DNA from: an uncultured Polaribacter sp.
GTDB lineage: Bacteria > Bacteroidota > Bacteroidia > Flavobacteriales > Flavobacteriaceae
DNA: 64,000 bases
Direction of reading: 5' to 3'
Assembly (NCBI GenBank): GCA_943846585.1
Contig: OX044349.1
Location: 1,028,008-1,092,007, forward strand
Shown: positions 12,552 to 55,680 of the stretch, piece after piece
How the letters are laid out: each line of letters opens with the position of its first letter
How positions within the stretch are numbered: the stretch's first letter is position 1
Notes under the pieces: generated by a model
The model's database searches: none
Told to the model about the DNA's origin: nothing
The model's input: the letters and a program-made list of their open reading frames with translations, nothing else
Made by a program: the position numbers and the translations under genes

Positions 12552-12556
12552 ATTAA

Positions 12557-12571
12557 GTGGAGACGCCGAGA
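12557..12571. repeat. att-like repeat, proximal copy within the ssrA 3' end
   Basis: GTGGAGACGCCGAGA, identical to 8233-8247. Confidence 0.9.
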
Positions 12572-12824
12572 ATCGAACTCGGGTCCAAACAAGCAGCAAA
12601 AAAGCTTTCTACATATATAGTTCTTACTTGGTTGTCGGCCTAAAACTGATTAAGAACAATCCATTTTAAACGTATCTTTTTCAATTTCAAAAACTTGCCA
12701 AAGCATCAAGTTTCCTATGTTTACTTTTTCGATGCCCAAAAGTGAAACGCCGTAAACCAAGGCTTTTCGTGGACATAAAGCTTTCCCGCCTTGCGGGACT
12801 AGGCCAATCCTACTATGATTCGGA

Positions 12825-12854
12825 TTAAGCAGCTAAAGCGTAGTTATCTTCGCC
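12825..12854 (-). other. tmRNA-encoded proteolysis tag (A)GEDNYALAA*
   Basis: GGC GAA GAT AAC TAC GCT TTA GCT GCT TAA read on the minus strand; matches the Bacteroidota GExNYALAA tag type. Confidence 0.92.
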
Positions 12855-12967
12855 GGTTAAATAGTTGAAATGAGTTTTACAAGAATGATTTCAGTCCTTG
12901 ATATGCTTACAAATTTACAGAACTTGCTGTCAAAACCAGTCGTCCCCAGTTTTTTTTAATTCATTTA

Positions 12968-43301: not shown

Positions 43302-43607
43302 ATGAGTCAAAAAATTAGAATTAAATTAAAGTCTTATGATTATAACTTAGTAGATAAATCTGCTGAAAAAATCGTAAAGACGGTAAAAAGTACAGGTGCT
43401 GTTGTAAACGGACCAATACCATTACCAACACATAAAAAGATTTTTACTGTTTTACGTTCTCCACACGTTAACAAAAAATCAAGAGAGCAATTTCAATTAT
43501 CTGCTTACAAAAGATTATTAGACATTTATAGTTCTTCTTCAAAAACTATTGATGCTTTAATGAAACTTGAGTTACCAAGTGGTGTTGAAGTTGAGATCAA
43601 AGTATAA
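43302..43607 (+). CDS. rpsJ: 30S ribosomal protein S10
   Basis: [30 protein letters not shown]. Confidence 0.99.
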
Positions 43608-43628
43608 TTATATATTACATATAATTTT

Positions 43629-43661
43629 AAAAAAAATAGGCTATTAAGCCTATTTTTTTTT
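43629..43661 (+). terminator. Intrinsic terminator after rpsJ
   Basis: A8-TAGGC(TATTAA)GCCTA-T9. Confidence 0.88.
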
Positions 43662-43841
43662 GCTTTACATTTTACGAAAAACAGGATTATAATTTGCAAA
43701 TAAAATAATTATCAATTTTATTTTTTCTTTAGAGCATCTACATCCTCTCTATTTTATATGCAGTATTTTACTTTTTTCGTAATTTTTTTGTTTTCAACTT
43801 TTTTTTATCAGATAGCAGGATAGATTTTTTTTATCTTACTA

Positions 43842-43872
43842 CTTGAAAATCAGAATAAATTTAGTACATTTG
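43842..43872 (+). promoter_or_regulatory. Sigma-A promoter for rplC operon
   Basis: CTTG (43842-43845), 19-nt spacer, TACATTTG (43865-43872). Confidence 0.8.
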
Positions 43873-43879
43873 CAACCTG

Positions 43880-44114
43880 TTAATGGGAAATTTATGTCTT
43901 TTTTAGTCATTTCTCCAGTATTAATAGGGATTAAACACATGTCCAGCGCGTTTCGCAAAGGAAAGACGGAAAAACAAAATCAGCGTTGAATTTGTTTTGC
44001 GCTTTTTTTTATGTTGATTTTCAAAAGGCATGAATACCGAAACAGTAGTTTCAAACAAGTAATTATTAATAGAGACGCGCTGGATAAATATCTATCGTCT
44101 AAAATTTTAACTAA
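43880..44114 (+). promoter_or_regulatory. Structured 5' leader of rplC, candidate attenuator or r-protein leader
   Basis: 15-bp helix 43940-43954/44072-44086 (two G:U pairs), competing hairpins, U8 at 44003-44010, uORF 43939-43989. Confidence 0.6.
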
Positions 44115-44732
44115 ATGTCTGGGTTAATAGGAAGAAAAATTGGGATGACCAGCTTATTCGACGAAAACGGGAAGAACATTCCTTGTACAGTAATCGAAGC
44201 AGGTCCTTGTGTTGTCACCCAAGTCAGAACCGAAGCGGTTGACGGATACAATGCGTTACAACTTGGTTTCGATGACAAAAAAGCAAAAAGCTCAAATAAA
44301 GCTTTAGATGGCCACTTTAAAAAAGCGGGAGCCACTGCGAAAAGAAAAGTCATTGAATTTCAAGGATTTGAAGAAGAGTATAAATTAGGAGATGCGATTT
44401 CAGTATCACTTTTTGAGGAAGGTGAATTTGTTGATGTATCGGGTACTTCTAAAGGTAAAGGATTCCAAGGGGTTGTAAAACGTCATGGATTTGCCGGAGT
44501 TGGTCAAGCAACACACGGACAACATAACCGTCTAAGAGCGCCAGGATCAATTGGAGCAGCATCTTACCCTGCAAGAGTATTCAAAGGAATGCGTATGGGA
44601 GGTAGAATGGGTGGAGACACCGTTAAAGTACAAAATCTAAAAGTATTAAAAGTAGTTGCTGAAAAGAACTTACTTGTTGTTAAAGGAGCAGTTCCTGGAC
44701 ACAAAAATGCTTACGTAACTATTCAGAAATAA
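44115..44732 (+). CDS. rplC: 50S ribosomal protein L3
   Basis: [26 protein letters not shown]. Confidence 0.99.
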
Positions 44733-55630: not shown

Positions 55631-55680
55631 AGTAGGAATTCGATTATCGAAGGAGATAGCCTTAATTCATAATCCCTGCT
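55631..55680 (+). promoter_or_regulatory. Structured element 5' of rpsD, probable S4 autoregulatory leader
   Basis: AGTAGG/CCTGCT, GATTAT/ATAATC and AAGG/CCTT nested helices ending 14 nt before the rpsD ATG. Confidence 0.55.

Follow-up and report, generated by a model that had tools for sequence, protein, structure and literature searches.

A 75-nt RNA core between rpsJ and rplC of marine Flavobacteriaceae is probably a cis-acting transcription attenuator of the operon that begins with rplC and rplD, and would constitute a previously undescribed RNA family. In the window (the whole stretch of 64,000 nt of DNA analysed), the core occupies positions 43937-44010. We put the probability that it is such an attenuator, with an excess of an operon protein triggering its terminator, at roughly 0.6. 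From 5' to 3', the core consists of ACAUGU, a hairpin (P1), the strand AAA(A/G)ACGG and a segment that can fold either as an antiterminator hairpin (AT) or as an intrinsic terminator (T) with a U8 tract, the two folds being mutually exclusive (Table 1). An earlier note on this DNA had proposed an undescribed, strand-specific RNA switch before rplC. Relatives bear this out, showing both conservation and compensatory changes in P1, T and AT. The functional unit is the 75-nt core, rather than the 235-nt leader or the 15-bp helix that the note had placed at its centre.

Table 1. Features of the rpsJ-rplC region, in window coordinates.
Feature	Position	Strand	Basis or remark
rpsJ (S10), last gene 5' of the leader	43302..43607	+	NCBIfam rpsJ_bact, E = 2.6e-43; ORF
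rpsJ intrinsic terminator, A8-UAGGCU-AUUA-AGCCUA-U9, 6-bp GC-containing stem	43629..43661	+	fold -14.5 kcal/mol
Promoter-like site, CTTG (43842-43845), 19 nt, TACATTTG (43865-43872)	43842..43872	+	sequence; predicted start near 43878
P0, 5'-proximal leader hairpin, ends 8 nt 5' of core	43876..43928	+	minimum-energy fold; sequence variable between species
ACAUGU, single-stranded, nearly invariant	43937..43942	+	37 genome-derived copies
Long-range 15-bp helix, 43940-43954/44072-44086, competes with P1 and P5	43940..44086	+	window sequence
P1 hairpin	43942..43962	+	both-side changes in 6/8 pairs
AAGACGG (consensus AAAACGG), single-stranded, joins strand a directly	43963..43969	+	37 genome-derived copies
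AT, antiterminator hairpin, a (43971-43978)/a' (43991-43998) and UCA (43980-43982)/UGA (43987-43989)	43971..43998	+	
T, intrinsic terminator, AGCGU (43982-43986)/GCGCU (43999-44003), U tract to 44010	43982..44010	+	
P4 hairpin, GAAAC-AGUA-GUUUC (44039-44043/44048-44052), window subclade only	44039..44052	+	stem invariant, loop variable in 16/16
P5 hairpin, AGACG/CGUCU and inner GGAU/AUCU, window subclade only	44073..44100	+	ends 14 nt 5' of AUG
rplC (L3)	44115..44732	+	NCBIfam L3_bact, E = 6.9e-82

The rpsJ-rplC spacer and the distribution of the core

The core sits in a spacer within a ribosomal-protein gene cluster. In the window, an EF-G gene lies upstream of rpsJ, 507 nt separate rpsJ from rplC, and rplD (L4; NCBIfam rplD_bact, E = 4.9e-70) and the L23 gene (E = 3.4e-30) follow 3' of rplC; genes 3' of rplW were named from their translations. 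The window's L3 is most similar to that of uncultured marine Flavobacteriaceae (97%), followed by Lutibacter, Tenacibaculum and Polaribacter (~89%). The rpsJ-rplC distance is 100-520 nt in most Flavobacteriaceae and 16-45 nt in Bacteroidales and several other lineages. All sequence features listed in the earlier note are there. Two of them concern the spacer: rpsJ ends in a strong terminator, an A8-stem-U9 hairpin whose Rfam matches are weak and of terminator type only, and the leader is richer in GC than the spacer upstream of it (0.32-0.36 versus 0.18-0.22).

The leader is transcribed and joined to rplC. The window sequence recurs in seawater metagenomes and metatranscriptomes, and in four metatranscriptome runs contigs span 43536-44123 uninterrupted, linking rpsJ, the leader and rplC. 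Depth does not drop past T in these assembled contigs, which do not give 5' or 3' ends. At 44018-44019, AA stands in place of TT in all four runs, a strain variant that would disrupt two pairs of an inner pairing of the window leader, 43976-43984/44013-44021.

Among the genomes surveyed, the core is confined to marine Flavobacteriaceae. We took rplC neighbourhoods from 80 species-representative genomes and compared the upstream regions side by side, which yielded a conserved block present in 36 of the 80. Its parts are, in order, ACAUGU, P1, AAAACGG, an A-rich strand a, UUCA-GGGU-UGAA, a U-rich strand a', the strand b' (the complement of the G-rich segment of the core) and a U tract. A metagenome scan with a pattern made of the invariant strands returned at least 120 stretches. 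Among the matches listed, 94 lie 103-205 nt 5' of rplC, 4 more end at a contig edge but come after rpsJ, and the remaining 22 were set aside as coding-like chance matches without a terminator. Core-bearing metagenome contigs number at least 98, and carriers exceed 100 marine Flavobacteriaceae in total.

A covariance model of P1 plus the terminator delimits the element. It has a single hit in the 64-kb window (43937-44013, 64.3 bits, E = 8e-16) and exactly one strong hit per locus in the 99 loci searched (48.8-89.7 bits, E <= 2.4e-10). The same model finds nothing in 44 non-carrier loci from Flavobacterium, Chryseobacterium, Pedobacter, Bacteroidales, Sphingobacteriales and others. A repeat or mobile element was considered and rejected on the grounds that the arm of the 15-bp helix is found once in the window and the model hits there once.

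The core is tied to rplC. Wherever a contig extends far enough, it lies 103-205 nt from rplC, a spread of about 100 nt, whereas its distance from the rpsJ stop codon runs from 9 to 2528 nt (median 37). This spacing bears on a plainer reading, in which T terminates partially and without regulation, only fixing the ratio of rpsL-rpsG-fusA-rpsJ to the downstream operon, and the flanks serve RNA processing or stability. Such a terminator would suit the 9-65 nt that separate the core from rpsJ in most species, and the variable hairpin P0 just 5' of the core. Where DNA has been inserted, however, the core stays by rplC and not by rpsJ (gaps of 246-2528 nt), and rpsJ in the window already has its own terminator. 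The plainer reading would also leave unexplained a second, mutually exclusive covarying helix and 18 nearly invariant unpaired nucleotides, and we regard it as improbable.

Other rplC leaders and insertions were seen along the way. Flavobacterium spp. (loci L024, L026, L033, L036 and L040) are without the core motif. About 60-100 nt 5' of their rplC, a TAnnTTTG promoter leads into another kind of short hairpin leader (CCCUGUUUGGAAAUUUCUGUUAUUUUCAAAUUGAAGGG is an example), which may be an independent rplC leader. In Pedobacter (L053, L054, L056 and others), no rpsJ lies within 2 kb upstream of rplC; a promoter-like box of its own and a conserved hairpin, CACCUUGAACGAAGC...GCUUCGAUGGGUG, precede the gene. 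Among core carriers, REP-like palindromes occur between T and rplC in L022, L023, L048 and L051 (GGACAAGUCGCGAnUUGUCC), and REP-like hairpins of the UUCAGAAUUCUGAAUUCAGAAUU type just 5' of the core in L012, L014, L037 and L048.

A variable hairpin between invariant strands, and two competing folds

The 5' domain of the core combines variable pairs with nearly invariant single strands. Because the metagenome scan selected its copies by those very strands, their conservation was judged on the 37 genome-derived copies alone. There, the six positions of ACAUGU are fixed except for C2, which is A in three copies, and nearly all positions of the AAAACGG strand are invariant or at least 90% conserved. 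P1 is closed by U-A and CC/GG pairs; above them follow a 3x3 internal loop, the GCG/CGC top and the UUU loop. The internal loop is a tandem G.A/A.G in most species; in about 12-16 of 102 rows it is replaced by U-A/A-U, G-C/G-C or C-G/A-U, giving Watson-Crick versions such as CCUUAAC/GUUAGGG, CCUCAAC/GUUGGGG, CCUGGAC/GUCCGGG and CCGUAAC/GUUACGG. Invariant ACAUGU and AAAACGG around a P1 that varies fit recognition by a factor.

Autogenous ribosomal-protein leaders often, though not always, mimic the rRNA site of their protein. We compared 95 variants of the 5' domain with E. coli 16S, 23S and 5S rRNA. The best local score was 23, no better than for shuffled sequences (mean 18.7, maximum 26). The 10-mer AAGACGGAAA at 43963-43972 of the window matches E. 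coli 23S 2051-2060 exactly, in the peptidyl-transferase/macrolide-site loop. Such a match is within chance expectation, and most relatives have AAAACGG[A/U]AA in place of AAGACGGAAA.

A small-molecule or ion riboswitch with P1 and its flanks as aptamer would present invariant unpaired nucleotides around a small hairpin, joined to a terminator/antiterminator platform. Against it, the 5' domain measures only about 33 nt, with neither a pseudoknot nor a multi-helix pocket in evidence, P1 varies freely in both its loop and its internal loop, and the core occurs only before a ribosomal-protein operon and has no match among Rfam riboswitches. We consider a riboswitch very improbable.

The invariant AUG within ACAUGU has also been weighed as the start of a leader peptide, whose translation would drive attenuation. 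In the window and in locus L010, its frame stays open as far as the UGA within the conserved UGAA. In many copies, however, the codon after AUG UCC is UGA or UAA, and in others it is sense, so there is no conserved open reading frame; the early stop led us to reject the leader peptide. A related idea is that T releases a trans-acting small RNA, which the window's promoter and T would make about 130 nt long. Most species have no promoter before the core, and the core was never seen away from rplC. We give these two ideas next to no weight.

P1 and T covary. In a model-based alignment of 102 rows, 84% of their cells are paired and 13 of 18 pairs show both-side changes; T contributes 7 of its 10 pairs, is 93.9% paired and has a U tract in every copy. 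The covariation score of P1 plus T is 0.286, against 0.154 for shuffled alignments (0 of 500 as high, a statistic that sequence relatedness inflates) and at most 0.078 with slid partners. U.G and G.U pairs are frequent, which restricts the structure to plus-strand RNA. RNAalifold on a MAFFT alignment recovered T and the base of P1 only; P1 and AT were defined by hand, with the covariance model and from per-sequence folds.

AT competes with T for the same nucleotides. In AT, strand a pairs with a' and UUCA with UGAA. Its UUCA, UGAA and U run all belong to the stem or loop of T, and its apical 4-nt loop holds the G-rich 5' half of T. When the truncated leader is folded, AT belongs to the minimum-energy structure of all 100 sequences out of 100, with at least five a:a' pairs in each. 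Internal-loop sizes vary among copies, making a column-wise count of a:a' pairs impossible, so the pairing was assessed by permutation of duplex energies. Cognate a:a' duplexes average -4.08 kcal/mol, compared with -2.36 for non-cognate, -1.71 for reversed and -1.45 for shuffled strands, and 0 of 20000 permutations was as good as the cognate set, a result likewise inflated by relatedness. There are 44 distinct a:a' pairing types, among them UAC:GUA, CAAA:UUUG, CAU:AUG and GAAAA:UUUUC. Column 77, the A of UUCA, is G in six cases; its AT partner is then C in 6/6 and its T partner C or U, a linkage that spans the two folds.

Covariation in each of two helices that exclude one another marks a switch rather than a plain terminator. 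The core sets an intrinsic terminator 5' of a coding sequence beside a conserved alternative that shares its nucleotides, as attenuators do, and it is a conserved, structured sense-strand RNA in an intercistronic region or 5' UTR, as ribosomal-protein leaders are. The inner pairings listed in the earlier note fared unequally. Those of 43971-43978 with 43991-43998 and of 43982-43986 with 43999-44003, followed by U8, are conserved and covary. The window also has that of 43976-43984 with 44013-44021, but relatives do not conserve the 3' arm. Pairing of AAAACGG with the end of T and the U tract is possible in some copies; the strand is invariant while that flank varies, and we did not adopt it.

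The two folds suggest how an attenuator of this kind would work. AT would be the first to form during transcription, letting polymerase pass. The 5' domain looks like a sensor, with P1 set between ACAUGU and AAAACGG, and an operon protein in excess would bind P1 and its flanks, which abut strand a. The bound protein would keep a from a', T would form, and transcription would stop before rplC. L4 is a candidate effector because E. coli L4 attenuates the S10 operon within its leader (PMC3616713); L3 or another operon protein is equally open. Fold energies qualify this scheme. T averages -12.1 kcal/mol across the family and AT -5.7, so AT alone may not suffice for efficient read-through, and the sign of regulation could be the reverse. 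In the window lineage the two are nearly equal, with a weak T at -6.3 and AT at -6.9 kcal/mol.

Promoters, read-through and additions in the window subclade

In most species no promoter stands in front of the core. The rpsJ stop-to-core gap is 65 nt or less in 91 of 125 loci, and a -7 box occurs in just 3 of 95 loci with a gap below 80 nt, which makes the core mostly an intercistronic attenuator in an rpsJ-rplC transcript. Where the gap exceeds 130 nt, a TAnnTTTG box stands 41-89 nt 5' of the core in 13 of 13 relatives; in the window and its closest relative, L001, it is 72 nt away. The window's site, CTTG and TACATTTG 19 nt apart, fits the Bacteroidetes -33/-7 promoter type. The promoter that the earlier note assigned to rplC is thus present in the window and far from general, and from its sequence it is plausibly a functional but lineage-specific addition.

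Every transcript of the operon must pass T. The stretch from T to the rplC AUG (119 distinct segments, median length 47 nt) is free of TAnnTTTG boxes throughout. Together with the short gaps after rpsJ, this means that in most species about ten essential ribosomal-protein genes need read-through of T. The reverse sign would be a positive control, antitermination in place of feedback repression, in which T is the default and a factor on P1 and its flanks stabilises AT or renders polymerase resistant to termination, so that T is passed only with the factor there. On average T exceeds AT in stability by about 6 kcal/mol, all operon transcription passes T and would need its efficient suppression, and the invariant single strands beside P1 would fit a bound factor. 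Yet no known antitermination signal matches the core and none is found in Rfam, known ribosomal-protein leaders repress, as is generally understood (see also PMC3616713), and T and AT are nearly balanced in the window lineage. We judge positive control unlikely, while granting it some weight. A broader version is similarly unlikely: the 5' domain may be a dedicated antitermination or ligand-sensing module, responding to a factor, a small molecule or an alarmone, that overrides a strong T in the middle of the str-S10 cluster. If so, it would be a growth-signal checkpoint for about ten ribosomal proteins in marine Flavobacteriaceae.

A hairpin commonly precedes the core. The 50 nt 5' of the core were compared across 126 distinct regions, and in 113 of them a hairpin stops 0-6 nt short of ACAUGU (median z = -1.85). 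In the window, the 5' hairpin that the earlier note drew at 43884-43891/43909-43917 is one of several near-equivalent pairings, and the minimum-energy fold uses a longer stem instead, P0. P0 may belong to the element itself, or it may mark a boundary or act as a stabiliser.

The 15-bp helix is a feature of the window subclade. It exists as the earlier note described it, with two G:U pairs that work only on the plus strand; the central role given to it is not supported by comparison. As the heart of the switch, it would enclose alternative inner pairings, and in the window it is indeed fully paired and prevails in the full-length fold (-54.1 kcal/mol, versus -44.7 with P1 and P5, a gain of about 9 kcal/mol). 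The 246-nt leader as a whole folds to -60.8 kcal/mol (z = -3.9, 0 of 200 shuffles as good; z = -3.2 for the minus strand). Both arms of the helix are conserved in 16 subclade relatives, but most carriers of the core have no 3' arm, which is restricted to 16 distinct sequences that also have P4 and P5. In these 16 the helix is 82% paired, versus 29-50% with slid partners, because both arms are conserved. It shows no covariation there, since 439 of 500 shuffles reach its score, and substitutions in the 5' arm go uncompensated: pair 11-147 is broken in 13/16 and pair 13-145 in 6/16. Moreover, the helix can form only after polymerase has passed T and so cannot decide termination. A switch centred on it is quite improbable.

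The window lineage has about 100 extra nucleotides, containing P4 and P5, whose 5' part can pair with the 5' strand of P1 to give the 15-bp helix. P4 and P5 are 94-100% paired across the subclade relatives. The GAAAC/GTTTC hairpin pointed out earlier corresponds to P4, with a stem invariant in all 16; the two helices of P5 are 99% and 94% paired, with a few double changes in the inner one. Speculatively, the P4/P5 extension may bring in a further layer of control, over translation or RNA stability, and the weak T and the favoured long-range conformer may mean that this lineage has shifted some control downstream of T. Separately, (A)AAUCU(A/G)AAAUC repeats lie directly 5' of the rplC start in L034, L182, L147, L020, L154 and L097 (in the last 30-60 nt before the AUG), and window positions 44096-44114 carry CGUCUAAAAUUUUAACUAAAUG, of the same type. 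The repeats could be a translation-initiation or protein-binding element.

Relation to known ribosomal-protein leaders

The core is most likely a new ribosomal-protein leader that works by transcription attenuation. Rfam 15 has no family at E <= 10 in the window leader; in 20 diverse relatives none reaches the gathering score, and one relative scanned at E <= 10 has nothing relevant. The 2020 catalogue of ribosomal leaders (Eckert and Weinberg, PMC7247131) has Flavobacteria entries for S4, S15, S16 and L19 and none for rplC or L4. Further full-text literature searches found no description of an rplC leader. Elsewhere in the window, the only Rfam hits at gathering level are an S4-Flavobacteria leader at 55642-55674 on the plus strand (49.5 bits) and a tmRNA at 12555-12947 on the minus strand (139.5 bits).

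Firmicutes leaders provide a parallel in architecture. In those of B. subtilis L20 (infC) and L10, a protein-binding domain is followed by a competing antiterminator and terminator, and binding, which is proven there, favours the terminator. The core is laid out in the same way, with a putative protein-binding domain; operon, lineage, sequence and fold all differ. In the E. coli S10 leader, L4 and NusA act on a paused polymerase and no antiterminator is known to take part, whereas the Flavobacteriaceae core has a covarying antiterminator alternative.

The E. coli leader is nevertheless the functional parallel, a leader RNA that controls an rplC-rplD operon by premature intrinsic termination (PMC3616713). 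It lies upstream of rpsJ, whereas the core comes after rpsJ and before rplC. It has no similarity to the core in sequence or model and no Rfam match there, and the E. coli type of L4-interacting S10 leader is confined to Gammaproteobacteria (PMC3616713). The L4-Archaeoglobi leader, a candidate defined by comparative genomics, also precedes rplC-rplD (PMC7247131). Its model, like those of the Flavobacteria S4, S15, S16 and L19 leaders, has no hit in the core region. The Firmicutes S10 leader and the 2024 Peptostreptococcaceae rpsJ motif are structured 5' UTRs of the S10 cluster (PMC7247131, PMC11109978), but they lie upstream of rpsJ, in Firmicutes, and their structures are unrelated to the core.

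A good understanding of how ribosomal-protein synthesis is controlled is limited to E. coli and a few members of the Firmicutes. The core would be an independently arisen control of the same gene set, placed elsewhere, between rpsJ and rplC, and built on a different RNA. With well over 100 examples and covariation for both states of the switch, it would offer a clean system for a new RNA-protein recognition pair, and its inclusion would close a gap in Rfam and in genome annotation. Its carriers, the marine Flavobacteriaceae, dominate the breakdown of algal blooms.
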